DNA of 64,000 bases, from contig CAVPOM010000004.1 in NCBI GenBank assembly GCA_963707025.1, positions 160,001 through 224,000 on the forward strand. Direction: 5' to 3'. Position numbers and translations under genes: made by a program. The notes under the pieces are model-generated. The model had not been told where the DNA came from. It saw nothing but the letters and a program-made list of their open reading frames with translations, and did not search any database. Source of the stretch: an uncultured Verrucomicrobiae bacterium (lineage in GTDB: Bacteria; Verrucomicrobiota; Verrucomicrobiia; Limisphaerales; Palsa-1400). Shown piece by piece: positions 1,998 to 53,535 of the stretch (positions within the stretch are counted from its first letter, which is position 1; each line of letters begins with the position of its first letter).

Positions 1998-2672
1998 ATG
2001 AAAATCCTGGTCATTGATATCGGCGGCACGCATGTAAAAGTGCGCGCCACCGGTCACAAAAAGCGGATGGAAATTCCATCCGGCCCAAAAATGACCGCCC
2101 ATGAAATGGTGGCGGCGGTTCGGAAGATCATCGCCGGCTGGAAATACGATGCCATCACGATTGGCTACCCGGGACCCGTACTACACGGACACATTGCCGC
2201 TGAACCGCACAATCTCGGTCATGGCTGGATGGGCTTTAATTTCAAAAGAGCATTCGGTTGTCCGGTGAAGCTTGTCAATGATGCGGCCATGCAAGCGTTG
2301 GGAAGTTATCGGGGGAAACGGATGCTTTTCCTGGGTTTAGGCACCGGCTTGGGTTCGGCGCTGATTGTTGACGGCGTGCTCGAGCCGATGGAACTGGCGC
2401 ATCTGCCTTACAAAAAAGGCCGCGCTTACGAGGATTATGTGGGTCTGGCCGGACTGAAGCGGCTTGGGAAAAAGAAATGGCGACGCCATGTCAACGACGT
2501 TGCCAGGCAACTCAAGGCCGCATTGGAGGCTGATTATGTCGTTTTGGGCGGCGGCAATGCGAGACTGCTCAAGAAACTCCCACTTGGAAGCCAACTCGGG
2601 GACAACGCCAACGCGTTTCGTGGCGGCCTTCGCCTTTGGTCAAAATCTCACAATCGGAATTTCCTAAAATGA
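1998..2672 (+). CDS. ROK family polyphosphate glucokinase-like protein
   Basis: Motifs VIDIGGTHVK, VNDAAMQALG, LGLGTGLGSA, ELAHL and VLGGGNA. Confidence 0.85.
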   Translation: MKILVIDIGGTHVKVRATGHKKRMEIPSGPKMTAHEMVAAVRKIIAGWKYDAITIGYPGPVLHGHIAAEPHNLGHGWMGFNFKRAFGCPVKLVNDAAMQALGSYRGKRMLFLGLGTGLGSALIVDGVLEPMELAHLPYKKGRAYEDYVGLAGLKRLGKKKWRRHVNDVARQLKAALEADYVVLGGGNARLLKKLPLGSQLGDNANAFRGGLRLWSKSHNRNFLK

Positions 2673-5148
2673 ATGATTCTGAAAACTCCGTGGCCTTCGG
2701 CGCGCCCGGCATCGAACCCCGTTGGACCTCCAGCGCCAAGGAAGGTCTCGGCACCGCTTATCATACGAGTTGCCGGGTCTGGTTCACACTCAGCCACGGC
2801 ATCATCAACGAAATCTACTACCCTACCGCAGACCAGCCAAACACGCGCGATTTTCAGTTTCTGATCAGCGACGGCGAGACGTTTTGCCACGAGGAGAAGC
2901 GCGACCTGGAGCACCGGATCGAATACCCGGAACGAGATTGTGTTTTCTACCGCCTGACCAATTCAGATCCCAACGGGCGATACCGGCTGATCAAGCACAT
3001 TCTCGCCGATCCGCATCGTTCGGTTGTGCTTCATGCACACCAAACTCGAAGTGCTTGATAAGTCGTTGCGCGGCAAGTTGCGTCTCTACGCGCTGTTGGC
3101 TCCGCACCTGGCGCGTCATGGTGCGGGCAACTCCGGTTGGTGTTCTGAAATCGGCGGCAACAGTCTGCTCCACGCCGAGCGCGAGGATGTGCATCTGGTC
3201 ATGGGATGCAGCCACGGGTTTTCGCGGCGATCCATCGGTTATGTCGGCGCCAGCGACGGCTGGCAGGATTTGATGGATAATCTCAAGATGGACTGGGAAT
3301 TCCGCAAAGCCGGGGACGGCAACATTGCGCTGACGGGCGAAATTGATCTTCAGGGCGGGGATGAGTTTGCGATCGCCATTGCGCTTGGGAGAAGCTGCCA
3401 GAGCACAGTGGCGAAGTTGCTGCAATCGCTGGCGGAGCCGTTCGAGGCCCATCGCGAAGCCTATATTCGCCAGTGGCAGCGCACAGTGGTCAATCCGAAG
3501 TTCGATTTCAGCAAGCACACATCCGACGGCGGGCACACGTATCGGCTAAGCCGCTGCATTTTGCTCGCCCACGAAGACAAAACCTTTCAAGGCGCGCTGG
3601 TGGCGTCCATGAGCATCCCTTGGGGCGAGACCAAGGGCGACAACGATCTGGGCGGCTATCATCTGGTCTGGACGCGCGATCTGGCGCAGAGCGCGACCGC
3701 ACTCCTGGCGACCGGCCAGACCGGGACTCCATTGCGCGCCTTGATCTGGCTGGCCGCCATTCAGCGGACGGATGGCAGATTCCCGCAGAATAGCTGGATC
3801 AATGGCAAGGCATATTGGTGCGGCGTGCAGCTTGATGAAGTGGCCGCGCCCATCCTGCTGGCGTGGCGTTTGCAGCGTGAAGGCGTCGCGCTGGGCCGGT
3901 TCGATCCCTGCGTCATGATTTCGCGTGCCGCAGCCTACCTCATCCGGCAGGGTCCGGTGACCGCGCAGGAACGATGGGAGGAAAACGCGGGCTTTTCTCC
4001 TTCGACGCTCGCCACGGTGATCGCCGGCCTGGTTTGTGCCGCGGAGTTTGCCAAACAGCGCAAGGACGCGGGCACTGCGGAATTCATACTGGTCAATATG
4101 CGGACTGGTTGGCCGCCCACCTTGAGGAATGGACCGTCACCACCGCCGGTGAATTGGTCGAAGGTTTCCGGCGCCATTACATTCGGATCAATCCCACGGA
4201 TCCCGGCCGCGCCCGATCCGCACGCCGATCCCAACACCACGATGCTTGCTATCGCCAATGGCGGCGGACGTCCGTCCGGCAAGGAACGTGGTCGGCGGCG
4301 ATTTTCTTCACCTGGTGCGATTGGGCATCCGCGCGGCTAATGATCCCCTCGTGCGTGATTCCATCGCTGTCATGGATCGCTTGCTCAAGGTCGATCTGCC
4401 GCAAGGTCCGGGCTGGCGCCGCTACAATCACGATGGCTATGGACAGAAGGAGACGGCAGCGCCTTCGACGGGACAGGCGTCGGACGATGCCTGGCCGATT
4501 CTGACCGGGCGAGCGCGGCCATTACGAGCTGGCGGCCGGGCGTGATCCCAAGCCGTTTATTGCCGCGATGGAAAAATTCGCCAACGAAGGCGGCATGATC
4601 AGCGAGCAGTTGTGGGACGCCGAAGACCTGCCGGAGAAGGGAATGAGGCGCGGGTTTTCCAGCGGTGCGGCAATGCCGCTGTGCTGGTCACATGCGGAAT
4701 ATGTCTCCCTCGTGCGCAGCGCTCACGACGGCGTGTGCTTTGATCGAGTCGAACCGGCCTTCCAGCGCTACGTCGTCAACCCGGTGGTAAGCCGGCACGA
4801 AATGTGGAGCTTTCGTCATTCGATTCGCCGCATGCCGCCCGGACAAATCTTGCGCCTCATCGTAGAGGCGGAGGCGACCGTCGTTTGGTCCGACGACTGC
4901 CTGGGCCAGCACCAACAAAGCGGACACCACCCATGATAGGCGCGCTGGGTTTGTGGTTCGCCGATCTTCCCACGGAGAATTGCCCGAACGGCTCGGTGAT
5001 CGAGTTCACTTTCTTCTGGAAAGCAGCCGGGCGTTGGGAAGGCACGAATTATTCAGTGGCGGTCACCGGACAAAGCCCGAGAGCTTCGGGAACGCGGAAG
5101 AATCCCAAAAACAAACTGACTGTCACGAGGGGCAGGGAAAACCGTTGA
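2669..5148 (+). CDS. GH15 glucoamylase/glucodextranase-like protein, split by several frameshifts
   Basis: Consecutive ORF pieces carry AFGAPGIEPRWTSSAK, GGYHLVWTRD, QLDE, QERWEE, WRRYNHDGYG and AMPLCWSHAEY. ATGA overlap with the ROK gene. Confidence 0.88.
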
Positions 5149-6193: not shown

Positions 6194-6568
6194 ATGACCA
6201 ACCTTAAAGACTTAACGATCAGCCAACTCAAGAGCATCATCGCCATCAAGGAGCAAATCGAGACGCTGCAAGGGCGAGTTGATTCCATCACTGTTGGTGG
6301 CGGTGTGATTCCAATCCCGTCTGCCGAGGAAGCCTCTGCGTCCGCCAAGCGCAAATATCACATGACCGCAGCCCACAAGCGTAAACTCATTAAAGCTCTG
6401 GCGAAGGCACGGAAAATACGCTGGGCAAAGGCAAAAGCGGCCAAGCCGGCCAAGAAGAAGGATTGGCGCAGCAGTCCGGCAACGAGGGCCAAACTTGCAG
6501 CAGCAGCCAAGGCGAGATGGGCCAAGGTGCGGGCGGAGGGAAAGAAGACGCTGCATAATAAAAGTTGA
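6194..6568 (+). CDS. Small basic K/A/R-rich histone-like protein
   Basis: N-terminal coiled coil (IKEQIETLQGRVDSI) and two RWAK-containing basic helices (ARKIRWAK, AKARWAK). Confidence 0.75.
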   Translation: MTNLKDLTISQLKSIIAIKEQIETLQGRVDSITVGGGVIPIPSAEEASASAKRKYHMTAAHKRKLIKALAKARKIRWAKAKAAKPAKKKDWRSSPATRAKLAAAAKARWAKVRAEGKKTLHNKS

Positions 6569-6947: not shown

Positions 6948-7877
6948 ATGAAAATCACGCGCAGGGAGTTTACGATGAAAGTGAGCGGGCTTGGAGTTGG
7001 AGGCTTGTTTGCACTTGGAGGTTGCGACAGAGGGGAAAGGAAGAAGGCCTTGTCGGAGACACTGCCAAAGCAGCCAGGTGCAGCCGGGCAGTCCAGAACT
7101 GCGTCGGCTGGGGAAGACGGGGCTGGTGCTTTCGTCCGTGGGTTTTGGCGCCCAGAGGACCAGAGATGACGACCTCATCCGCTACGCTCTTGACCAAGGC
7201 ATGACTCACATTGAAACGGCGTGGAGCTACGGTTTTGGACGCTCAGGCAACAGTTGCGAATGCATCGGCAAAGCGATTGCGGGGAGGCGCGATTCGGTGT
7301 GTCTGGCGGTGGCTTACTCGATGGAGGCGTCTCCAACCAGCAAGGCCTGGCTTCCGAATCAATTTGAGCAGACGCTCCGAGATCTGGGCACCGATCATAT
7401 TGAGGTATTCCTGTGGCACCACCGGGGGGCGGATCGATCAACAACAGCCAATTGACCTTGGAGCAGAGTCAGGCGCTGGTCGCTGCGGGCGAGAGGGTGG
7501 ATCTGATGCTGAAATGGAAGAAGGAAGGGAAGATCCGATGGTGCGGTGTGACCGCCCACAGCGAGCAGGTCGAATGGCCGAAGTTCGTGGCGGAATCCAA
7601 GCTGTATAACGTCGCGGTGGTCGCCTTTAACTACAACAGCCCCACAGCGGTTGCCCAGGCCATGCAAGAGGCCTCGCGGGCGGGAGTCGGCCTGATCGCG
7701 ATGAAGACCCAAAGCCCCAATTACGTTGATGGGGAAGCGCAGATTGGCAATGCACCCGACCATCGCCAAGCCTTGAGCTGGGTTCTCTCCAAGGACTTTG
7801 TCACTGCGGCCATACCTGGCATGACCACACGCAGTCAGGTTGACCTGAACCTGAAAACAATGGGTTCAGCGATATGA
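6948..7877 (+). CDS. Aldo/keto reductase with a Tat-like leader; two frameshifts (~7070, ~7420)
   Basis: Motifs TRREF, RRLGKTGLVLSSVGFG, IETAWSY, LRDLGTDHIEVFLWH, KKEGKIRWCGVTAH and GVGLIAMK. Confidence 0.8.
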
Positions 7878-7906: not shown

Positions 7907-9091
7907 ATGAACGGAATTTCAGAAACATCGTCGCCGGCTTCCCTCCCGACAGCGACGCAGCCGAAGGCGGGCGCCCCGGCGTTCTGGCCGGGTCTTCTTC
8001 TCTCGCTCGCCGCCGGCTTCATCACGGTCGGGATTATGTGGGACATTTCCTGGCACGAGACGGTCGGGCGCGACACTTTTTGGACCGCGGCGCACATGGT
8101 CATTTATCTGGGGGGCGCTTTAGGAGGATGTGTCGGCGGATGGCTGGCTATACATTATACGTTTCTGGCCGGCCCGGAGGAACGGGCGGTGGCGGTGGGC
8201 GTGTTTGGAGCGCGCGCGCCGTTGGGAGCCTGGGTGGCAATCTGGGGAGCAGTGGCGATGCTGACTTCCGGGCCATTCGATAATTGGTGGCACAATGCCT
8301 ACGGGCTGGATGTCAAGATTATCAGTCCGCCCCACGCTTTGCTGGGACTGGGAATGTTTGGGATCACTTTTGCCGCGTTGCTCCTGGTGCTCTCGCGCCA
8401 GAACCGTTTGCAGGATGGCGCGGGCAGCGGATTATTTGTTCTCGTGGGCGGCGTGTTCGTGGTGATGGCGGGCGTGTTCGTGATGGAATACACGTTTCCC
8501 AACATGCAACACGCGGCGCCTTTTTACGAGGCGTGCGGATTGACTTTTCCACTTCGTTTGGTCGCCTTGGGGCGCGCCGCCCGAACCTCCTGGCCGGTAA
8601 CGCGCGTCGCTGCGGTCTACATCCTGGTCGAATGCCTGATGATCTGGATTCTGCCGCTCTTTCCCGAGCAGCCCAGGCTGGCGCCGATCTTCAATCCTGT
8701 GACGCACATGGTGCCTCCACCCTTCCCGCTTTTGCTCGTCTTTCCAGCCGTGGCGATGGATCTGGTGCTGCGTTGGGCGAGCGGCGTCACCGGCTGGAGG
8801 CGCGTGGCCCTCGCCTTTTTGCTCGGCGCGGTTTTCCTGGCGGTGTTCATCCCGGTGCAGTGGTTCTTCTCCGCGTTTTTGCTCTCGCCGCACGCGGAGA
8901 ATTGGTTTTTTGTGGGAAACCGGGTCTGGAGTTACGGTGATAATCTCGGTGATTGGACGAGGCAGTTCTGGAATGTAAATCTCTCCCGCGCCGCCGTCCT
9001 GACGGCGCTGGCCTGGAGTTGGGGGTGGGCCGCCGTCACTTCCTGGCTCGGACTGCTCCTGGGCGGTTGGATGCGAAAGGTGCAGCGATGA
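7907..9091 (+). CDS. Polytopic membrane protein with two D-x3-H-x12/13-H motifs
   Basis: Many hydrophobic segments; WDISWHETVGRDTFWTAAH and FDNWWHNAYGLDVKIISPPH. Confidence 0.8.
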   Translation: MNGISETSSPASLPTATQPKAGAPAFWPGLLLSLAAGFITVGIMWDISWHETVGRDTFWTAAHMVIYLGGALGGCVGGWLAIHYTFLAGPEERAVAVGVFGARAPLGAWVAIWGAVAMLTSGPFDNWWHNAYGLDVKIISPPHALLGLGMFGITFAALLLVLSRQNRLQDGAGSGLFVLVGGVFVVMAGVFVMEYTFPNMQHAAPFYEACGLTFPLRLVALGRAARTSWPVTRVAAVYILVECLMIWILPLFPEQPRLAPIFNPVTHMVPPPFPLLLVFPAVAMDLVLRWASGVTGWRRVALAFLLGAVFLAVFIPVQWFFSAFLLSPHAENWFFVGNRVWSYGDNLGDWTRQFWNVNLSRAAVLTALAWSWGWAAVTSWLGLLLGGWMRKVQR

Positions 9092-10635
9092 GGCGGCTGC
9101 TGCTCTTGGCGGTTCTATTGACACTGTTTTGTCCCTGGCCGGCGTGGGCGCATGTCGGCAGTCCTGATGTTTTTTATGACGGCATGGTGGGGAAATGGCG
9201 AGTGCATATTGCCATCCGCATGCCGGGAGTTGTCCCCGGACGGGCCGAGATCATTGCGCAAGTCCAGAGCCAGGAACCGGTGGTCGTTTCCTTCACGCCA
9301 CTTGCCTCGCGGAATGCTGTCAGCAACGCGCCCCCGGCGGAAACGGCGAAACTGGTGCCCGGTGAAACGAACATTTACACCGGCGATTTGTGGTTGATGA
9401 CGATTGGAGCTTACAGCATTGATGTGCGGATTCATGGAGCATCGGGCGATGGCGCGGTGCAAATTCCGGTCAATTCGGTCGCGATCATGCAACTTCCGCT
9501 GCCGCCCTGGCTCGGCGGCCTGTTGCTCGCACTGGGCGTGATTTTATTTTGCGGAGGGATGGCCATTGTCGCCGCCGCCGCTGGAGAGAGCGTGCTGCCA
9601 GTGGGAGCCGCGCCGGGGAAAACCGAGCGTCGCAAATACTGGATGGCGGCAGCCATCACGGGCATCGTGCTGGCGCTGGCGCTTTTGGGTGGCAAGAAAT
9701 GGTGGGATGCGGATGACCGGGATTTCCGCGCGCGACTGCGTGGGGGCGGCTGGCCGGATGTCGCGGCGGACGTCCACATGGAAGGCGCGCAACGCATTCT
9801 GGCGTTGACCTTCGGTTCGACAGGTAATTCTTCCTCCGGGCCGAATGCCTATCTGGGTTTGTCGCCCGACCACGGCAAACTCCTGCATCTGTTTCTGGTT
9901 CGGCAGCCAGGCCGCGAGGCGTTTGGGCATATCCATCCAGTGCGCAAAGGCAATCGAACTTTCGCGGTGGCTTTGCCGCCATTGCCGGAAGGCGATTACG
10001 AACTGTTCTGTGACTTGACTCTGGACTCTGGACTGAGTTCCACCGCCACGAACAGGGTCCATCTTCCCGCCATGCCTGCCACCACCAACGCCACTAATTC
10101 CCTGGAACCGGACGCGGACGATTCGTGGGCGGTCGAGTCTGCGGCCGCCGTCCGCGCCGATGCCGGCCACGACACCATTTGTCGTCTGCCTGATGGAACG
10201 CAAATCATTTGGAAAGCCCATCCACCGCCGCGCGTGAAACAAGACGCCGCTTTGCGATTCGAGGTCCTTGACCAAGCCGGACAACCGGCCCAGCTCGAAC
10301 CTTACATGGGCATGACGAGTCATGCCGCGGTGCTGCGTTCTGACGGACGCGTTTTTGACCACCTGCATCCTTCGGGAAATTATTCGATGGCGGCCCAAAT
10401 GATTTTTGACGCCAAGATCGCCAAAGAAACCGGCGCCCTTCCGCCCGGAATGATGAAGATGCCAGACGGCTCCATCATGGATCGTTCGATGATGGGTCGC
10501 GCTTCCAATGGCGATGAAACCTCGTTGGTCTCCCTGCCCTACGAATTTCCGGCGCCGGGGAATTACCGGATTTGGGTCCAGATCAAGATAGCCGGCAAAA
10601 TCATGACCGGCATTTTCGATACGACCGTCCGGTAG
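9088..10635 (+). CDS. Exported membrane-anchored His/Met-rich putative copper-binding protein
   Basis: ATGA overlap with the upstream gene. Signal peptide ends AWA then H22; two central TM helices; DHGKLLHL, GHIHP, PYMGMTSHA, DHLHP and a Met-rich segment. Confidence 0.75.
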   Translation: MRRLLLLAVLLTLFCPWPAWAHVGSPDVFYDGMVGKWRVHIAIRMPGVVPGRAEIIAQVQSQEPVVVSFTPLASRNAVSNAPPAETAKLVPGETNIYTGDLWLMTIGAYSIDVRIHGASGDGAVQIPVNSVAIMQLPLPPWLGGLLLALGVILFCGGMAIVAAAAGESVLPVGAAPGKTERRKYWMAAAITGIVLALALLGGKKWWDADDRDFRARLRGGGWPDVAADVHMEGAQRILALTFGSTGNSSSGPNAYLGLSPDHGKLLHLFLVRQPGREAFGHIHPVRKGNRTFAVALPPLPEGDYELFCDLTLDSGLSSTATNRVHLPAMPATTNATNSLEPDADDSWAVESAAAVRADAGHDTICRLPDGTQIIWKAHPPPRVKQDAALRFEVLDQAGQPAQLEPYMGMTSHAAVLRSDGRVFDHLHPSGNYSMAAQMIFDAKIAKETGALPPGMMKMPDGSIMDRSMMGRASNGDETSLVSLPYEFPAPGNYRIWVQIKIAGKIMTGIFDTTVR

Positions 10636-11309: not shown

Positions 11310-14300
11310 ATGAAAACGCTTTCCGTGTCTCTTGCGACGGCTCTGGCTGTCGTCTTCACTCCCTGCGCCTTTGGACAGTTCACCAACGCCATGCCGGGTC
11401 GCGCCTTGAACAAGTTGTTGCCCGACTATGCCCGCCCGCTGGTTTACGGGCTTAATCAAGCCAACGGCTCCGTGCCCGGCACCTTGCTGGCCCTCAACGC
11501 CAGCAATGGAGTCATCGTCAACGAGATCACGCTGGACTTGAATCCGACGGACATGGCAGCCAGTCCGGCAGGCGACGCGCTGTATGTCATCAACGCGGGC
11601 AGCCGAACGATTTCCAAAGTGGATTTGAATTCTTTCGCAGTGGTGTCGGAAAAGGCCATATCAACGCCCAGTACTTACAGCCTTTCCAATCCGTTGTATC
11701 TGGTGGTTAGCCCATCGGGCCTGATTTACTACACCGACGGAGCTTGGGGCCCGGAGATTTATTCTTTCGATTTCAATGCCGGGACGAACATGCTCGTCTT
11801 GGACACCGGAGGCAACCAGAGTATCGGCGCCGGCGGAATGGTGCTGAATAAGAGTGGCGATACTCTCTATATCTGGCAACAATATGGATGGAGCGCTGGT
11901 TACGCAAACTCAGCGATAGCCAGTCTCGCTGTGGGCGCCGGTTCATTGACGACGACCGCAACCGGCCCGTCGCAGGGCCGCGATCCGCTGAACACCCCTA
12001 TTTTCCTGGATGCAGCGGGGAGATGGGTATTTAACAAAGTGCAGAGAGTTTCTGCAACAAATGTCACAGTTCTGTTAAGTCAATTTGCCGACAACATATA
12101 TGCCATTTCGCTCGATGGCGCGGTCGCCTTTGGGCCCAATGAGGTTTACAACGGGCTGACGGGCTTTTTGCTGACCAATCTGCCGTTCGCGACGGCGGTG
12201 CAGACGTTGTCCGGCGATCAAACGAAGTTGTTTCGTTACAACGGCACGACCACGAACCTGGTGGTCTATGATATGGCCGGCATTGCCCCCGTCAGCGGGC
12301 CGGCCATTGTTCCCACGCCTGCGGATGGCTCGGTCGTCAGTCCGCCCATGACCAATCTGGCCTGGACGGTTTCCCCATTGGCCCTGGCCTATGACGTGTA
12401 CTTGGGAACCAACCGGGCTCAGGTTGCCGCCGCTGCCACTTCCTCTCCCCAGTACTTGGGCCGCGTCACAACTCCGGACGAGTCCCTCGCTCCGGCTCTG
12501 ATTCCAGGAACAACCTATTACTGGCGCGTGGATATCGCGGGCTTCAACGCCACCAACACCGGCAGCGTCTGGTCGTTCACAGTTGCCACTTTGTCCGTCA
12601 GTCCGCCCCAGATCGGCGTCGGTTCCATTGCGGGTTACAGTCCCGCCGCCACGACCCTGACCCTGACCGGTGGCGCGTCCGTCACTTGGTCCGCCGCGGT
12701 GACAGGCCCCAACTGGATGACGTTGAATCCGACCAGCGGAAGGACGCCATCTTCGCCGGTCGTGTCCTTCACCACGGCCAGCCTGGCGGCTGGATCGTAC
12801 ACCAACAATATTGAGTTCACGATTGGTGCTTCCAAGCTGGAATTGCCGGTCACCCTCACCATCACACCGCTCAACATCGTGAAGATGGCGGCGGACAAGC
12901 AGCGCCCCTACATCTATGCGTTGCAGCCACCATCGCTCTCCGGCCAAAACGGGTTGTTGCTTTTTATCAACACCGCCACCGGGAACATTGATAAAACTCT
13001 GGCCATCGGCCTCAACCCGGTGGACCTGAGCATTAATTACGGCGAGGGCAATTTGTATGTAGCCAGTTGGGGTGAAACCTGGACATACGTTGTGAATTTG
13101 AACACCCAAACCCTCCTCCCCTCTTTGAACCTCGGCACCGATGTTTACAAAATCAACGCCGGCAAGGCGGGACGGGTCATGATCGAAGGGGAAGACCAGT
13201 GGGTGTACGTGAGCTTGATCAATACGGGGAACGCCTCTGTGGTGTCTTCCATCTTTGTCCGTGAGGGCGATGGCGCGTGTGATCCGACCGGAACGGTTTA
13301 TTACCATTGCGACAACAATATATCCGATGCTTGCGTCCACAAATACATGACCACAAACGATTCGTTTGTCGAAGTAGCCGACAGCCTCCAGCATCCTTAC
13401 GGCACACGCAATCTGGTTTTGTCCCCCGATGGAAGCATTCTCTTTTGGAACAGTTACGCCTACGACCCCAATTTGAACGAGCTGGGCACTTTTAGCGCCG
13501 AAATCTACTCCTGTTCCACCAACGGCCGCATCGTCTTTGGCGCCAGCCAGGCGTTCGACAGCACGACCCGCCAGGCCATCTTTAATCTCCCCGTTTCCAG
13601 CGGCGTCTCTGTAGTGGACGGTCAGAATCTGGGCTTCTGGTATTTCAATTCCACCAGCGCCGCGTTGGGCCGTGTGCCGATGAGCTTGGTTGAAACTCCT
13701 GCCTTCAGCGTGCAGCCTGCCGCTGCCACCTCCGTTGCCATTGGAGGCTCGGTTTATTTAACGGGAACCGCCATCGGGCTGGCGCCCCTTTCCTATCAAT
13801 GGATCTTGTCGGGAACCAACCTCCCCGGCGCGACGAATTACTTCCTCTCGATGAACAATGTGCAGCCGGCGCAGCAAGGCGCCTATCAACTTGTCGTCAA
13901 CAATTCGTTTGGCGCGGTGACCAGCTCCGTCTCCCATCTGACGGTGGTTGTTCCTCCGACCATCTCGAGCCTTTCGCCCGGCACCAATGTTCTGGCGGGG
14001 GAGCCGATCAACTTGGCTGTCGGAGCCGCCGGCACCGCCCCGTTCACCTACCGTTGGATGTTTGAAAATGTCTCCATCGCCGGCGCCGCCAATTCGACGC
14101 TGACGATCAGCAATGCCCAGGCGACAAATGAGGGCATTTACAGCGTCGTCGTTGCCAATGTGGCTGGGTCCGTCACCAGCGCGGTCGTCGCGGTCCGCGT
14201 CTCTCCCTCGGCGCCCGTCCTGGTCACAGGGCCGGCCTCCCTTACCCTGCCAGCCTCGTCCAACGCGCTTTTTAGCGTCACCGCCGTTGGCAGTCAGCCG

Positions 14301-15977
14301 CTGGCCTGCGGCTGGCTCTTTGACAACCTGCCGATCGTGGGTGCCACTTCCCCGCTGCTCGTCCTGACCAATGTTCAATTCTCCAACAGCGGCAGCTATC
14401 AAGTAGTTCTCTCTAATTCCGCCGGCTCCACCACCAGCGCCGTGGCCGCGCTGACGGTCACCCCGCTGGCGCCTTATTTCACCCTGCAGCCTGTCGGCGC
14501 TTCCAACAGCGTCGGGACCAGCCGCACTTTCACCGCCTTGGCCAACGGCTCCCAGCCGATTGCCTACCAATGGCAGCAGAACAACACCAACATTCCTGGT
14601 GCCACTCAGACGTCCCTCCTTCTTGCCAACCTGGCCCCCGGCAACGCAGGCTCTTACACCGTCATCGCCACCAACTCCGCTGGCTCCTGCACCAGCGCCG
14701 TGGCACCACTGACCGTCTTCCAAACACCTGCGATCACCACACCGCTGACAAATGTTGTCACCGATATCAGCAACACCGTGCTTCTTTCTGTCGCCGCCCA
14801 GGGCAGCGCAACTCTCCATTACTGCTGGCGCTTCAACGGCGCGCTCCTCGCAGAAACCAGTTCCGTCCTCACCCTCACCAATCTCCAAACCTCGCAGTCG
14901 GGTTACTACCAAGTCACCGTCACGAACCAGTACGGCAGCGCCGCCTCTCTCGCCCGGGTCAGCGTCTTGTCCTTCCGATGCATGGTCATTGCGTGGGGCG
15001 ACAACTCCGGCGGCCAATGTTCCGTCCCGGCCAATTTGATGGATGCGGTTGGCGTGGGCGGCGGCGACTACCACACCATCGCCCTCCGGCACAACGGCAC
15101 CTTGCTTGGCTGGGGCTACAACGGCGACGGCCAAACAAACGTTCCTGCCGGCTCCCTGCTTTACGTGTCCATCGCATGCGGGGCCGCCCACAACCTTGCC
15201 ATCAGGGAGGATGGTTCTCTGGTCGCCTGGGGCCGCAATGACGCCGGCCAGATCAACATTCCGGCCAACGCCAAGTCCAATATTCTTTCCATTGCCGCCG
15301 GGGATTCGCACAGTGTGGCACTGCTTTCCGCAGGCTCCGTTGTTGCCTGGGGCGACAATTCGTTCGGACAAACTTCCGTGCCGGCTGGGTTGACAGGTGT
15401 CCGCGCTGTGGCCGCCGGTCGCAACCACAGCCTTGCCCTCCTCGGCACGGGCCGGGTGTCCGCGTGGGGTTTCAACACGTACGGCCAGTCCTCACCCCCG
15501 GCGAGCCTGACCAACGCCATGGCCATCGCGGGCGGCTATCTCCACAGTGCGGCGCTTTGTTCCAATGGCACCGTAGTCGTTTGGGGCGATAACTCTTATG
15601 GTCAAACCAATGTTCCAGCAGGAGTGTCCAACGTCGTCGCCATCGCCGCCGGAGATTTCCACACGCTGGCTTTGCGTGCGGATGGGACCATTGTTGGCTG
15701 GGGCAACGACAACTATGGGCAGGTTGATGTTCCGGCCGCCGCCGCCGCCGCCTCGGGTATCGGCTCGGGCAATTATCACAGCCTTGCGCTTGTTCCTGCT
15801 GTCGTGCTTCAAGCTGCCCTCAATTCATCCCAATTAATTGTCAGTTGGGATGGTCCGGGCGTTTTGCAATGGGCTCCGACCCCGATTGGACCTTGGACTT
15901 CGGTCATTTGCCAGGGCACCTGTTACACCAACCTTGATATGTCCTGGCCGGCCAGGTTCTTCCGCGTCCAACGCTGA
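11310..15977 (+). CDS. Large secreted multidomain surface protein (beta-propellers, BACON-like domain, 5 Ig-like repeats, 7 RCC1 repeats)
   Basis: Signal peptide; five P..F/I...Y.W Ig units; seven WG.N..GQ..VP-type RCC1 blades; C-terminal ...GPW...RFFRVQR. Confidence 0.85.
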   Translation: MKTLSVSLATALAVVFTPCAFGQFTNAMPGRALNKLLPDYARPLVYGLNQANGSVPGTLLALNASNGVIVNEITLDLNPTDMAASPAGDALYVINAGSRTISKVDLNSFAVVSEKAISTPSTYSLSNPLYLVVSPSGLIYYTDGAWGPEIYSFDFNAGTNMLVLDTGGNQSIGAGGMVLNKSGDTLYIWQQYGWSAGYANSAIASLAVGAGSLTTTATGPSQGRDPLNTPIFLDAAGRWVFNKVQRVSATNVTVLLSQFADNIYAISLDGAVAFGPNEVYNGLTGFLLTNLPFATAVQTLSGDQTKLFRYNGTTTNLVVYDMAGIAPVSGPAIVPTPADGSVVSPPMTNLAWTVSPLALAYDVYLGTNRAQVAAAATSSPQYLGRVTTPDESLAPALIPGTTYYWRVDIAGFNATNTGSVWSFTVATLSVSPPQIGVGSIAGYSPAATTLTLTGGASVTWSAAVTGPNWMTLNPTSGRTPSSPVVSFTTASLAAGSYTNNIEFTIGASKLELPVTLTITPLNIVKMAADKQRPYIYALQPPSLSGQNGLLLFINTATGNIDKTLAIGLNPVDLSINYGEGNLYVASWGETWTYVVNLNTQTLLPSLNLGTDVYKINAGKAGRVMIEGEDQWVYVSLINTGNASVVSSIFVREGDGACDPTGTVYYHCDNNISDACVHKYMTTNDSFVEVADSLQHPYGTRNLVLSPDGSILFWNSYAYDPNLNELGTFSAEIYSCSTNGRIVFGASQAFDSTTRQAIFNLPVSSGVSVVDGQNLGFWYFNSTSAALGRVPMSLVETPAFSVQPAAATSVAIGGSVYLTGTAIGLAPLSYQWILSGTNLPGATNYFLSMNNVQPAQQGAYQLVVNNSFGAVTSSVSHLTVVVPPTISSLSPGTNVLAGEPINLAVGAAGTAPFTYRWMFENVSIAGAANSTLTISNAQATNEGIYSVVVANVAGSVTSAVVAVRVSPSAPVLVTGPASLTLPASSNALFSVTAVGSQPLACGWLFDNLPIVGATSPLLVLTNVQFSNSGSYQVVLSNSAGSTTSAVAALTVTPLAPYFTLQPVGASNSVGTSRTFTALANGSQPIAYQWQQNNTNIPGATQTSLLLANLAPGNAGSYTVIATNSAGSCTSAVAPLTVFQTPAITTPLTNVVTDISNTVLLSVAAQGSATLHYCWRFNGALLAETSSVLTLTNLQTSQSGYYQVTVTNQYGSAASLARVSVLSFRCMVIAWGDNSGGQCSVPANLMDAVGVGGGDYHTIALRHNGTLLGWGYNGDGQTNVPAGSLLYVSIACGAAHNLAIREDGSLVAWGRNDAGQINIPANAKSNILSIAAGDSHSVALLSAGSVVAWGDNSFGQTSVPAGLTGVRAVAAGRNHSLALLGTGRVSAWGFNTYGQSSPPASLTNAMAIAGGYLHSAALCSNGTVVVWGDNSYGQTNVPAGVSNVVAIAAGDFHTLALRADGTIVGWGNDNYGQVDVPAAAAAASGIGSGNYHSLALVPAVVLQAALNSSQLIVSWDGPGVLQWAPTPIGPWTSVICQGTCYTNLDMSWPARFFRVQR

Positions 15978-16457: not shown

Positions 16458-16704
16458 ATCTCTTCCCTGGCAGAGGCCATTCTGCGCCCTTGAGAACAGT
16501 CTGCGCTTGTGCGAATGGAGATACCCATTTTTACATCTTCCCATTCTGGTTTCAAGCCGATGAGCCACAGCAGCCAAATCACCCAATTCAAGGCCCCTTT
16601 CAGCAATCGCCGGTCTTGGGAGGCGAATCTTGCAGGGCAAGATATGTAAAACAAAGGACAACCAATGGGAAGAGGGATACGCCGCTTGGAGCGACCCTTT
16701 AACG

Positions 16705-18461
16705 ATGGGTACTCGATTGATTTTAACCTTGGCGGCAGGGCTTCTCGCAACAACGGCCGTGGCCGCCGCCGAGATCAGCAGCAGCGACTGTCTGGTATGC
16801 CACGGCGACAAGACCTTGACCGGCACCAACGCGGCGGGGCGGACGGTTTCGTTATATGTTGATGCGGCGGCGCTGGCGGCTTCGGTGCATCGCACCAATT
16901 CCTGCGCTAGTTGCCATAACGACATCACGGACAAGCATCCGGACGATAACGTCGTGGCGCGTGCGGTGGGCTGCGCGCGCTGCCATTCGGAAGCGTCCCT
17001 GAGTTTCACGGCCAGTGTGCATGGGGTGGCCCTTCGGGATGGCGTCACCAACGGGACGCATCACGCCCCGGTTTGCAGCGACTGCCACGGGTCGCATGGA
17101 GTGGTGCTGCCCAGTTCGCCGCAGTCCCCCCTTAATTTTGCCCATCTCGCCCTCACCTGCGGCCAATGCCATGAACAGGAGGCCAAAGACGTGATGGAAA
17201 GCGTCCACGGCAAGGCGGTGGCGGCGGGGCAGCGCGAGGCGGCGACCTGCACCGATTGCCATTCGGAGCACAAGATCGAAGCGCTCAAGGGAAGCTCGTC
17301 CCTGAAAATCTCGCAGGAGGTTTGCAGCAAGTGTCACGCCTCGGAGCGCCTGAACACCAAATACAATCTGCCGCCGGACCGGGTGAAAACGTTTTTCGCC
17401 AGTTACCACGGGCTGGCCGCGCAGTACGGCTCCACCCGCGCTGCCAATTGCGGCAGTTGCCACGGCTTCCATCTGGTTCTCCCCTCCTCCGACCACCGTT
17501 CCAGCATTTACAAGAACAACCTGGCCGCCACCTGCGGAAAATGCCACGAGGGAGTCAGCGCCAATTTCGCGCAGAGCAAGGTGCATGTGGACATTGACGC
17601 GGCGCGCGGCGACGCCCAGTTGAGCGAACGCATCAATTGGTGGGTGCGCAAAATCTACGTGGGGCTGATTTTTGCCGTCATCGGCTTGATGGCCGCCCAC
17701 AACGCCCTCATCTTCGGCCGCAAGGCGGCGGTGCTCAATCGCCGCTCCGAACGCACCCTGGTGCGGATGGATGCTTCCCAGCGCTGGCAGCACTGGGTGC
17801 TCGCGGCCAGTTTTATCGTGCTGGCGTGGAGCGGATTTGCCTTGAAGTTTCCTGATTCGTTTGTGGCGCATTCGCTGGGGTCGGGCGAAAACTTCCGTCG
17901 CTGGACCCATCGCATTGCCGGGGTTTTGCTGCTCCTGGCCGGCGCCTATCACCTCGGCTACGTCTCCGCCGCCCGCGAAGGGCGCCGGCTGCTCAAGGAC
18001 ATGCTTCCCAGCCTGAAGGATGCGCGGGACGCGGCGGCCAATGCGCGCCGGCTGGCCGGCTGGGCGGTGTCAAACCAAAATTCGGGCGGTTCGGCTACGC
18101 CGAGAAAATGGAGTATTGGGCCGTGGTCTGGGGAACCGTCATCATGGGCGCGACCGGCCTGACGATCTGGATGAAGATGGGAGTGACGCGGTTTCTGCCG
18201 CGCTGGGCGGTTGATGTGGCGACCACCATTCATTATTACGAGGCGATCCTGGCCTGCCTGGCTATTTTGGTGTGGCACCTTTATCATGTCATTTTCGATC
18301 CGGACGTGTATCCTCTGAACCGCGAGGTTCTGGACGGTCGCGTCTCGCGGGAATGGTTGGAAGAAGAACATCCGCTGGACCCGGCGCTGGCCGGCGCAGA
18401 GCCGCCCGCCCCCGCAGCCGATCAAGCCAAACATCAGGAGACGCAACCGGCGCAGCATTGA
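16705..18461 (+). CDS. Nine-heme cytochrome c fused to a cytochrome b membrane domain (CbcL-like); frameshift near 18065
   Basis: Nine CxxCH motifs counted, then QRWQHW..AASF, HRIAG, EKMEYWAVVWGT and IHYYEAILACLAILVWHLY. Confidence 0.85.
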
Positions 18462-51998: not shown

Positions 51999-52023
51999 AA
52001 AGAAAAGAGTAGCAGACGTGTCA

Positions 52024-52049
52024 ATAAGGCGGTATATATACCGCCTTAT
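52024..52049. promoter_or_regulatory. Perfect 26-bp palindrome overlapping the transposase start codon
   Basis: ATAAGGCGGTATA|TATACCGCCTTAT. Confidence 0.7.
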
Positions 52050-53535
52050 GCCCGACACCCCCTTCTTCCCGGCCTGGCGGCCCCGTCTGGCGGCGGCGGG
52101 CCGCCGCTGTGCCCACAGCCTGGCGCGCCTCCGTCACGCCACCTTGAGTCAGATCGAGGACCGCCTGGCTCCCGCCTTGCCCACCGACCTCCTGCGAAAA
52201 CCGGCCGCCGGCGACTACTCCCGCGAGCAGGTTTACACTCTGGTTCGCACCTGGTGGTGCTGGGTCTGGCCAGTCTTCCAAGCCAACACTTCCTGCCGCC
52301 ACGTCGTCCTTCAGGTGCAGGCCCTGCTGGCCTTGGTCCAAGGCCCGGAACCGGAGCCGGACAGCAGCGCCTATTGCCAGGCCCGCGCCAAACTCCCCCT
52401 GGCCTTGCTGGAGCAAGCCTTCGCGGCCAGCGCCGACAGCGCCGAAAAGCGCGCCCCGGCCAGTACGCTGCTACAGGGCCGCCCGTTGAAAGCGGTCAAT
52501 GGCAGCGGCACCCACCTGCCCGACACCCCGGCCAATCGGGCGGCCTTTCCCCCCAGCCAAAGCCTGCAGCCCGGCGGCGGCTTTCCCCACCTGCGCGTGG
52601 TGGCTCTGTTCTCCGCCGCCAGCGGCGCCCTTTTGGCCAAAGCCACCGGCAGCCTGCGCTCCTCCGAACTGGCTCTGTTTCTCCACGGCTTGCGCTCGGC
52701 TTTGCACCCCGGCGACATCCTCTTGGGCGACCGCGCCTATGGGGTTTATATTATCGCCGCCGTCCTCCAACTCCTGGGCGTGGATTTGCTCGCGCGGGTC
52801 TCCGTGCGCAACCGCAAGGTGGATTTCCGCCAGGCCCGCCAACGCCTGGGTCACTGGGACGCGCTCTTTACCTGGTCCAAACCCGGCCGGCCTTCGCCCC
52901 TGCTTTCGTTCCTGGAATGGCTCGGACTGCCGCCGCAGATCACGGTGCGGGTGCTGCGCGCGCGCCTGAGCCGGGCCGGCTTCCGCACCCGCCACCTGAC
53001 CCTGGTCACGACCCTGTTGGATGCGGCGCTTTTTCCAGCGGAGGAACTGGCGGCCGCTTATGCCCGGCGCTGGCGCATGGAACTGTGCCTGGACGATCTC
53101 AAAACCACCCTGGGCATGCAGAGCCTGCATTGCCTCTGTCCCCGCATGGTGGAGAAAGAACTCCTGCTCTTCCTCACCGCCCATAATTTCCTGCGCTGGA
53201 TCATGGCCGAAGCCGCGCAAAGCCAGAACGTGGACTTGGATCGGATCAGTTTCAAAGGCAGCCTGGACGCCTTCCGGCAATGGACGCAGGCACTGGCACA
53301 ACTCGGACACGCCCGGAACAAAGGGGGACGGCGCCGCCAATTATGGCAGCGGCTGCTCCGAAGGCTGGCGACCGATCTGGTGCCCAGGCGTCCGGGAAGA
53401 GCGGAGCCGCGCGCTGTCAAGAAACGATCCAAATACCCCCATTTGAACAAATCGCGGCATCAATACCGCCAGCCCTGGAGCCGCAATAAACGCCGCCGTC
53501 TGGCCCGGGCCAAAAGAAAGGCTTCCCTTATTTAA
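52048..53535 (+). CDS. IS4-family DDE transposase; first catalytic Asp appears as Asn
   Basis: AVNGS (expected VDGS), GDRAY and YARRWRMELCLDDLK (Y-x2-R-x3-E-x6-K). Confidence 0.9.
   Translation: MPDTPFFPAWRPRLAAAGRRCAHSLARLRHATLSQIEDRLAPALPTDLLRKPAAGDYSREQVYTLVRTWWCWVWPVFQANTSCRHVVLQVQALLALVQGPEPEPDSSAYCQARAKLPLALLEQAFAASADSAEKRAPASTLLQGRPLKAVNGSGTHLPDTPANRAAFPPSQSLQPGGGFPHLRVVALFSAASGALLAKATGSLRSSELALFLHGLRSALHPGDILLGDRAYGVYIIAAVLQLLGVDLLARVSVRNRKVDFRQARQRLGHWDALFTWSKPGRPSPLLSFLEWLGLPPQITVRVLRARLSRAGFRTRHLTLVTTLLDAALFPAEELAAAYARRWRMELCLDDLKTTLGMQSLHCLCPRMVEKELLLFLTAHNFLRWIMAEAAQSQNVDLDRISFKGSLDAFRQWTQALAQLGHARNKGGRRRQLWQRLLRRLATDLVPRRPGRAEPRAVKKRSKYPHLNKSRHQYRQPWSRNKRRRLARAKRKASLI

Follow-up and report, generated by a model that had tools for sequence, protein, structure and literature searches.

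What is encoded by a pair of overlapping genes that bears the marks of a copper membrane monooxygenase (CuMMO), when one of the expected subunit genes appears to be missing? The pair in question, gene 1 and gene 2, lies at positions 7,907 to 10,635 of a 64,000-nucleotide stretch of DNA (hereafter the window) from an uncultured Verrucomicrobiae bacterium (assembly GCA_963707025.1, contig CAVPOM010000004.1). A first-pass annotation, made from the sequence alone, had proposed an oxidase or copper-handling complex; this either/or stays, and the evidence presented here leans to copper handling. We found that gene 1 is very probably homologous to the CuMMO core, and that the pair looks like an undescribed branch of CuMMO-like proteins, likelier to handle copper than methane.

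The two genes and the parts of gene 1 are as follows (+, forward strand).

7907..9091, +, gene 1: polytopic membrane protein of 394 amino acids (aa), with a PmoC-like N-terminal half joined to a PmoA-like C-terminal half
7979..8416, +, PmoC/AmoC-like four-helix core of gene 1, residues ~25-170 (hhalign, weak Pfam AmoC matches, modelled helices)
8042..8095, +, CuC-type ligand set D46, H50, H63 with conserved R55-D56 (alignment, conservation)
8279..8335, +, CuD-type ligand set D125 (Asn in PmoC), H129, H143, with conserved D135 (Glu in PmoC)
8405..9088, +, PmoA/AmoA-like domain of gene 1, residues ~167-394, with family-conserved E194, H202 and H267 (fold Z, hhalign)
9088..10635, +, gene 2: exported, membrane-anchored, His/Met-rich protein of 515 aa

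The two halves of gene 1

The stop codon of gene 1 and the start codon of gene 2 overlap as ATGA, which bears out the translational coupling first proposed. Each gene is present once in the source genome (6.96 Mb, 88% complete), where a search with profiles for pmoA, pmoB and pmoC (from 89, 77 and 65 real sequences, respectively) found no true member of the three. Sequence searches of both proteins against Pfam, NCBIfam and PDB returned nothing significant.

The first-pass annotation had singled out two D/H motifs in gene 1 and linked the first to PmoC. Both are there: D46-x3-H50-x12-H63 and D125-x3-H129-x13-H143 are the sole matches to D-x3-H-x10..15-H in the protein. Among gene 1 and 103 of 150 listed 50%-identity representatives, counting rows without a gap, the first set is kept at D46 in 86/87, H50 in 77/87 and H63 in 87/88 rows, and the second at D125 in 99/102, H129 in 90/102 and H143 in 93/103 (88-99% overall), so both motifs are conserved well beyond chance. 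When residues 25-170 were compared with a PmoC/AmoC profile (real xmoCAB operons serving as reference), hhalign gave a probability of 90% (E 1.8e-6), with D46/H50/H63 falling on the CuC ligands, D125/H129/H143 on the CuD ligands, and both motifs aligned gap-free. The PmoC link is thus stronger than first noted, and the second motif is a CuD match, not a mere second copy of CuC. CuD in pMMO (particulate methane monooxygenase) is given as Asn227, His231 and His245 (PMC12576850), and the two sets described in AMO (ammonia monooxygenase), Asp136/His140/His153 and Asn207/His211/His225, have the spacings of gene 1 (bioRxiv 10.64898/2026.08.31.748207).

The likeness to PmoC/AmoC (PF04896) extends to the W-H, R-D and P-x-H context of the motifs and to the distance between them, which is 71-83 residues in the family and 71-73 in PmoC/AmoC. 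Pfam AmoC was also the commonest weak match of the homologues (35 of 135, best E 3.5e-4), and the gene 1 family profile, run blind over 301 genomes, matched the window gene, one methanotroph pmoC (E 7.7e-4) and nothing else. Gene 1 nevertheless differs from PmoC/AmoC in scoring below the Pfam cut-off, in being fused to an A-like domain, in having no matched counterpart of the N-terminal part of bacterial PmoC, and in carrying Asp for the CuD Asn. Among the 90 family rows examined, this first CuD position is Asp in all 73 that carry both motifs, as against Asn in 65/65 PmoC/AmoC. In an unrooted tree of 52 core rows, built by a quick method and without archaeal AmoC, the family sits on its own long branch, apart from 25 bacterial PmoC/AmoC rows. 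A viral fold library gave no match to gene 1. A reading of gene 1 as a cytochrome b561 (Z 7.6) was rejected, since in the model all four His appear to lie at hairpin ends on one membrane face.

The model of gene 1 is confident (predicted local distance difference test, pLDDT, 94.3; predicted template modelling score, pTM, 0.91), and the fold comparison with pMMO/AMO proposed at the outset could be carried out on it. Foldseek placed AMO and pMMO chains on top with probability 0.91-1.00. On realignment, 12 such chains reached Z 12.8-13.9 over 185-207 residues (root-mean-square deviation, rmsd, 3.9-5.2), centred on residues 167-394; together with a thirteenth at Z 9.2, PmoA/AmoA chains fill the top 13 listed rows of 993 aligned chains, the best unrelated one reaching 7.8. 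Judged by chain length the matched chains are subunit A, and the profiles agree: the C-terminal half matches PmoA with E 8e-4 over 189 columns and PmoC with E 0.93, and neither cross pair (N-half with PmoA, C-half with PmoC) is significant. Fourteen of the 44 columns conserved in both the C-half and PmoA profiles hold the same residue, and none of 40 column shuffles reached the observed score against a 9-sequence PmoA set.

The C-half therefore shares with PmoA/AmoA (PF02461; 4phz_B, 7s4h_B, 9cl6_B, 9leg_A) a fold of ~200 residues and a collinear profile alignment, at 10-15% identity, with the GDWxFWxDWKDR loop replaced by an E194...H202 loop. The remark that the locus holds no separate pmoA gene is literally true and yet misleading, since pmoA would then be not missing but fused on. 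Gene 1 is best read as a C-A fusion in which the operon order is kept. Two apparent variants of this arrangement were discarded: a gene split at the C/A boundary in one genome (G562) is a frameshift rather than two genes, and an apparent gene 1-gene 2 fusion (P0392), the sole match among longer proteins, has an out-of-frame-looking middle stretch and was set aside as an artefact.

Several results weigh against the homology of gene 1 to the CuMMO core. No PmoC chain appears among the listed fold matches, for which the whole-chain model was the query and the C-half filled the lists, so the link of the N-half rests on sequence. Its profile signal lies mostly in the first motif block, with 23 of 40 block shuffles scoring as high. 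As for the C-half, the Foldseek E-values of the AMO/pMMO chains are 0.04-0.24, the profile probability against PmoA is 24%, a weak match, and with the 9-sequence PmoA set one block shuffle in 40 scored as high as the trimmed alignment. Moreover, a wide fold search, which also returned 3chx_B (Z 9.2), had S-components of energy-coupling factor (ECF) transporters in 11 of its 13 best rows (best Z 11.2, rmsd 3.4, 163 residues aligned).

S-components such as 5edl and 4z7f indeed have a six-helix fold related to that of the C-half, at a lower Z than PmoA. They differ in that the C-half is fused to a metal-site bundle, and in that two S-component profiles gave E 0.19 and 0.4 against the C-half, from shallow sets of 5 and 23 sequences. 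PmoA itself gave E 0.03-0.04 against an S-component profile, and a library search for papers linking a PmoA-like domain with ECF S-components listed none that matched most of its terms. In the ESM Atlas, gene 1 met unnamed clusters only.

Gene 2 and its predicted complex with gene 1

Gene 2 comprises the following parts.

9088..9150, +, putative signal peptide ending AWA, after which H22 would be the first residue (sequence pattern)
9151..9486, +, domain 1: YtkA-like beta-sandwich carrying the invariant residues W102 and M104; docked on gene 1 in the predicted complex
9505..9735, +, pair of transmembrane helices; in the predicted complex the first packs against helix 106-132 of gene 1
9760..10065, +, domain 2: beta-sandwich with H262, H267, H281 and H283, each in 66/66 rows
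10162..10629, +, domain 3: repeats domain 2 and has M409, H412, H425 and H427, a variable Met-rich insert and a CrdA-like fold

The model of gene 2 (pLDDT 93.7) shows three beta-sandwiches and two transmembrane helices, one sandwich before the helix pair and two after it, in agreement with the layout of a soluble domain, two helices and further soluble domains that had been read from the sequence. AWA|H22 is likewise present, with cleavage that we infer from the pattern: an H-[VIS]-G start is found in 79 of 80 rows (79 loci and the window), preceded by A, G or S in 77/79. Across 66 rows, namely the window and 65 full-length locus copies trimmed at the first His, W102, M104, H262, H267, H281, H283 and H412 are invariant, and H425 and H427 (65/66 each) and M409 (64/66) nearly so. 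These include the two HxHP motifs noted before, H281-H283 and H425-H427. The Met-rich patch (residues 434-469) is real; it is, however, a variable insert, with at least four His plus Met in 28/66 rows. In domain 1, H22 is the only conserved His, H40 and H116 not being kept.

Does gene 2 then correspond to PmoB? The annotation had likened the two, and with PmoB/AmoB (PF04744) gene 2 does share a signal peptide, a first His, a soluble part on either side of two transmembrane helices, and the third place in the C-A-B order. Unlike PmoB, it has three sandwiches, no CuB-type HxH in its first domain, and His sites placed in a tandem repeat after the helices. Comparisons with PmoB profiles were not significant (E 0.029 or higher throughout), and the fold searches of gene 2, in which the domains were not folded singly, list no PmoB chain. 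The likeness thus holds for the layout, the matches being YtkA, CrdA and a copper-island protein, and the B position appears to be filled by a protein with PmoB-like layout only.

These matches point to copper. Domains 2 and 3 are repeats of each other (profile probability 94%), and they are homologous to the twin-HxHP protein MYCCH_RS28025 (E 2e-19), whose gene is flanked by one for an HMA-domain protein and one for a heavy-metal P-type ATPase. The best fold match of domain 3 is CrdA of Helicobacter pylori (9ll2, 9ll4; Z 11.6-11.9, rmsd 2.0-2.2, 100-101 residues aligned), a periplasmic protein described as holding copper via a Met-rich loop (PMC9182242). Domain 1 weakly matches YtkA (PF13115) in 4 of 38 homologues, below the Pfam cut-off, and the ESM Atlas returned two unnamed actinobacterial clusters (0.87) and a YtkA cluster (0.76), which we treat as leads only. 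The fold and the conserved His/Met ligands of gene 2 fit a YtkA/CrdA-type copper-binding beta-sandwich, although CrdA is single-domain and has no His, whereas gene 2 is membrane-anchored and predicted to be bound to a CuMMO-like partner.

Complex prediction, which had been suggested as a check, supports binding between the two proteins. The score of the pair was 0.76, and the best of three controls had 0.00; a score of 0.76 was reached by 116/157 solved pairs and 2/215 mismatched pairs, counts that hold only roughly here because own alignments and two Zn ions were used. The runs agree in at least 87% of contacts, with a partner pLDDT of at least 81. In the 1:1 model the first of the two gene 2 membrane helices is packed against helix 106-132 of gene 1, and domain 1, including W102 and M104 (mature 81 and 83), meets gene 1 residues 129-135 and 255-262, so placed over the loop that bears the second ligand set. 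Zn was included in the prediction, and no metal contacts were reported.

Considering both genes together, the pair falls outside the CuMMO family in its present definition. CuMMOs have been described as encoded by three genes, xmoC, xmoA and xmoB (PMC6215863), whereas here there are two, with the C-like and A-like parts in one chain, and neither window protein exceeds the cut-off of the Pfam families AmoC, AMO and Monooxygenase_B. The pair has the CuC Asp-x3-His-x12-His, the His-x13-His pair of CuD and the PmoA fold; it departs from CuMMOs in the number of its genes, in its scores against the families, at the CuD Asn position and at the CuB site. A verrucomicrobial pMMO lacking the CuB ligands has been reported (PMC13058606), an absence that is also visible in our data. 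The most divergent CuMMO group described has separate C, A, X and B genes (PMC9038741), and the word "fusion" does not occur in the main text of this paper or of PMC6215863. Among the titles and abstract openings listed by our literature searches we found no description of the family, of which subscription papers or supplements could hold a mention.

Pairing, spread and surroundings of the family

Many proteins belong to this large family: of the 8,000 candidates scored for each gene, 5,816 fell into it for gene 1 and 1,881 for gene 2, and the 50% library gave 2,316 gene 1 clusters at E 0.001. Pairing, also proposed as a check, is nearly constant, with gene 2 directly downstream of gene 1 in 79 of 80 GTDB loci, and a 4-base overlap in about 52 of the 79 (hand count, heuristic starts). 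Since these loci had been found by motif patterns, pairing was recounted on loci found by profile, and 19/19 were paired, including one in an unpublished genome (G429). The sole unpaired locus is a second gene 1 copy with a tRNA after it (L078:5881-7068), in a genome whose other copy is paired.

Judged by record titles, the carriers belong mostly to Verrucomicrobiota, Gemmatimonadota and Acidobacteriota. The family occurs in 12 of 40 relatives of the host, in 17 of 100 genomes of a Gemmatimonadota-centred sample and 7 of 150 of an Acidobacteriota-centred one, and in none of 300 genomes drawn across the host phylum; it is therefore patchy. Cultured, non-pathogenic carriers include Chondrinema litorale, with the pair (WP_284688389.1 and WP_284688390.1), and Streptomyces and Mycolicibacterium chubuense, with a one-gene form.

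The one-gene form is a distant actinobacterial relative. All five plasmid copies inspected are single open reading frames (ORFs) of 475-496 aa with both motifs and an internal AxA|HDPGQG, a segment that, on sequence grounds, is a putative His-first domain fused to the same chain; compared with domain 1 of gene 2, it gives no significant match (E 0.056). Genes nearby encode, among others, multicopper oxidases, cupredoxins, HMA proteins, heavy-metal ATPases and a four-helix copper-binding protein at four of the five loci, and a YHS protein and a BlaI/MecI/CopY regulator at the fifth. A Rubrobacter plasmid copy, which lies in two overlapping frames, was not counted. On plasmid pMYCCH.01 of M. chubuense NBB4, a true CuMMO operon and a one-gene relative lie ~165 kb apart (L247:8905-10374, L095).

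Promoter and terminator scans were at chance level. In the window, directly upstream of the pair, an aldo/keto reductase gene (6991-7877) is split over two overlapping frames, both pieces of which match PF00248; this is a frameshift, either an assembly error or a pseudogene. A glucoamylase (GH15) gene at 2636-4936 also seems broken into several overlapping ORFs, Pfam confirming 3024-4340 only. Together these two cases suggest erroneous indels in the assembly; gene 1 and gene 2 are themselves intact. A protein at 16630-18162 joins a multihaem cytochrome c to a cytochrome b domain whose match stops early (1-78 of 179), and its gene may be frameshifted. The window further encodes a basic Lys/Ala-rich protein of 124 aa without Pfam match (6194-6568), possibly nucleoid-associated, an exported protein of 1555 aa with five immunoglobulin (Ig) domains and RCC1-like repeats (11310-15977), and a DDE transposase amid glycoside hydrolase genes (52018-53535).

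Proposed copper handling and its alternatives

That the complex handles copper is a tentative reading, which in our judgement falls slightly short of probable. It draws on the homology of domains 2 and 3 to MYCCH_RS28025, the CrdA fold match, the weak YtkA matches and the relatives in metal islands. In this model, the two proteins would handle copper at the outer face of the cytoplasmic membrane, on a scaffold built from the CuMMO catalytic core. Domains 2 and 3 of gene 2 may collect periplasmic copper, and domain 1, with its N-terminal His and invariant Met104, may pass it to the two outward-facing Asp-His-His sites; gene 1 could then hold the copper, shift its redox state (for example by Cu(I) oxidation with O2) or hand it on.

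A number of observations speak against copper handling. The conservation of both sites and of the PmoA-like half is more than simple copper binding needs. The copper-island context was seen on five plasmids that carry a distant subfamily, and these do not count as independent samples. For the two-gene form, the 80 loci show no recurring copper-looking third gene, the commonest neighbour family (14/80 loci) being sensor kinase-like, as judged from sequence only. Furthermore, 96 upstream regions showed no shared operator, palindrome or known operator pattern above shuffles.

The main rival, to which we assign a real though minor chance, is that the pair forms an O2-activating, pMMO/AMO-like copper enzyme that would act on some small or lipophilic substrate at a CuC/CuD-type centre, with gene 2 only loading copper or relaying electrons. 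It ranks first among the alternatives because gene 1 retains the A-like half along with both sites, because CuC/CuD is the preferred candidate for the active site, and because verrucomicrobial pMMO can do without CuB (PMC13058606). The residues next to the ligands (R55, D56 and D135) are conserved as well, and the two-gene form stands without copper neighbours. Of 41 related genomes, 13 carry the pair, and each of the 13 also has a gene of the haem-copper oxidase family; but so do 39 of the 41 overall, which makes this count uninformative. On the other hand, the CuD Asn is replaced by Asp throughout the family rows with both motifs, no catabolic gene recurs downstream in the 80 loci, and the relatives are located in metal islands. 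Nor does the host point to such chemistry, since the window is rich in glycoside hydrolases and the bacterium looks like a sugar-degrading heterotroph.

It is improbable, in our view, that the pair is instead a complex that transports or binds some other metal or a cofactor, working through the S-component-like C-half, with Zn, Fe, Ni or Co in the Asp-His-His sites. The prominence of ECF S-components in the wide fold search would agree with it, as would the zinc reported at CuC in the first crystal structures (PMC12576850). However, PmoA scores higher over more residues, the two shallow S-component profile sets gave no match, a riboswitch scan of 20 loci found none, and the relatives of gene 2 are copper-linked. 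More improbable still is that the likeness to PmoC and PmoA reflects convergence on a common helical-hairpin metal motif and a common membrane fold. In its favour, gene 1 itself has no Pfam, NCBIfam or PDB sequence match, no PmoC chain is among the listed fold matches, and a Z near 13 is possible for helical bundles. Against it, each half leads separately to a subunit of one and the same enzyme, in the order of the operon; the motifs agree in their spacing and in the distance between them; and the co-conserved C-half columns that share a residue speak for homology.

Beyond copper handling, the favoured explanation, the family bears on the active site and the origin of pMMO and AMO, which are long-standing questions; current work favours the CuC/CuD centre as the active site (PMC12576850, PMC13058606). 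In the family a centre of this type is kept within a single chain, Asn is naturally replaced by Asp and the partner protein is a different one, so that it offers a comparison group for evolutionary work and a simpler biochemical object. The gene pair is unsuitable as a marker of methane or ammonia oxidation. We regard it as possible, if doubtful, that the family is a fourth deep branch of the pMMO/AMO superfamily in ordinary heterotrophs, with members that are encoded by two genes, or by one in actinobacteria, and that would activate O2 at a centre of the CuC/CuD type. If so, the origin of methane and ammonia oxidation would be tied to copper homeostasis proteins and an S-component-like fold, and the family would provide a small system for the question of CuC versus CuD as the active site. 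If the complex handles copper only, it would still be an undescribed copper system and a hint at the source of the enzyme core.

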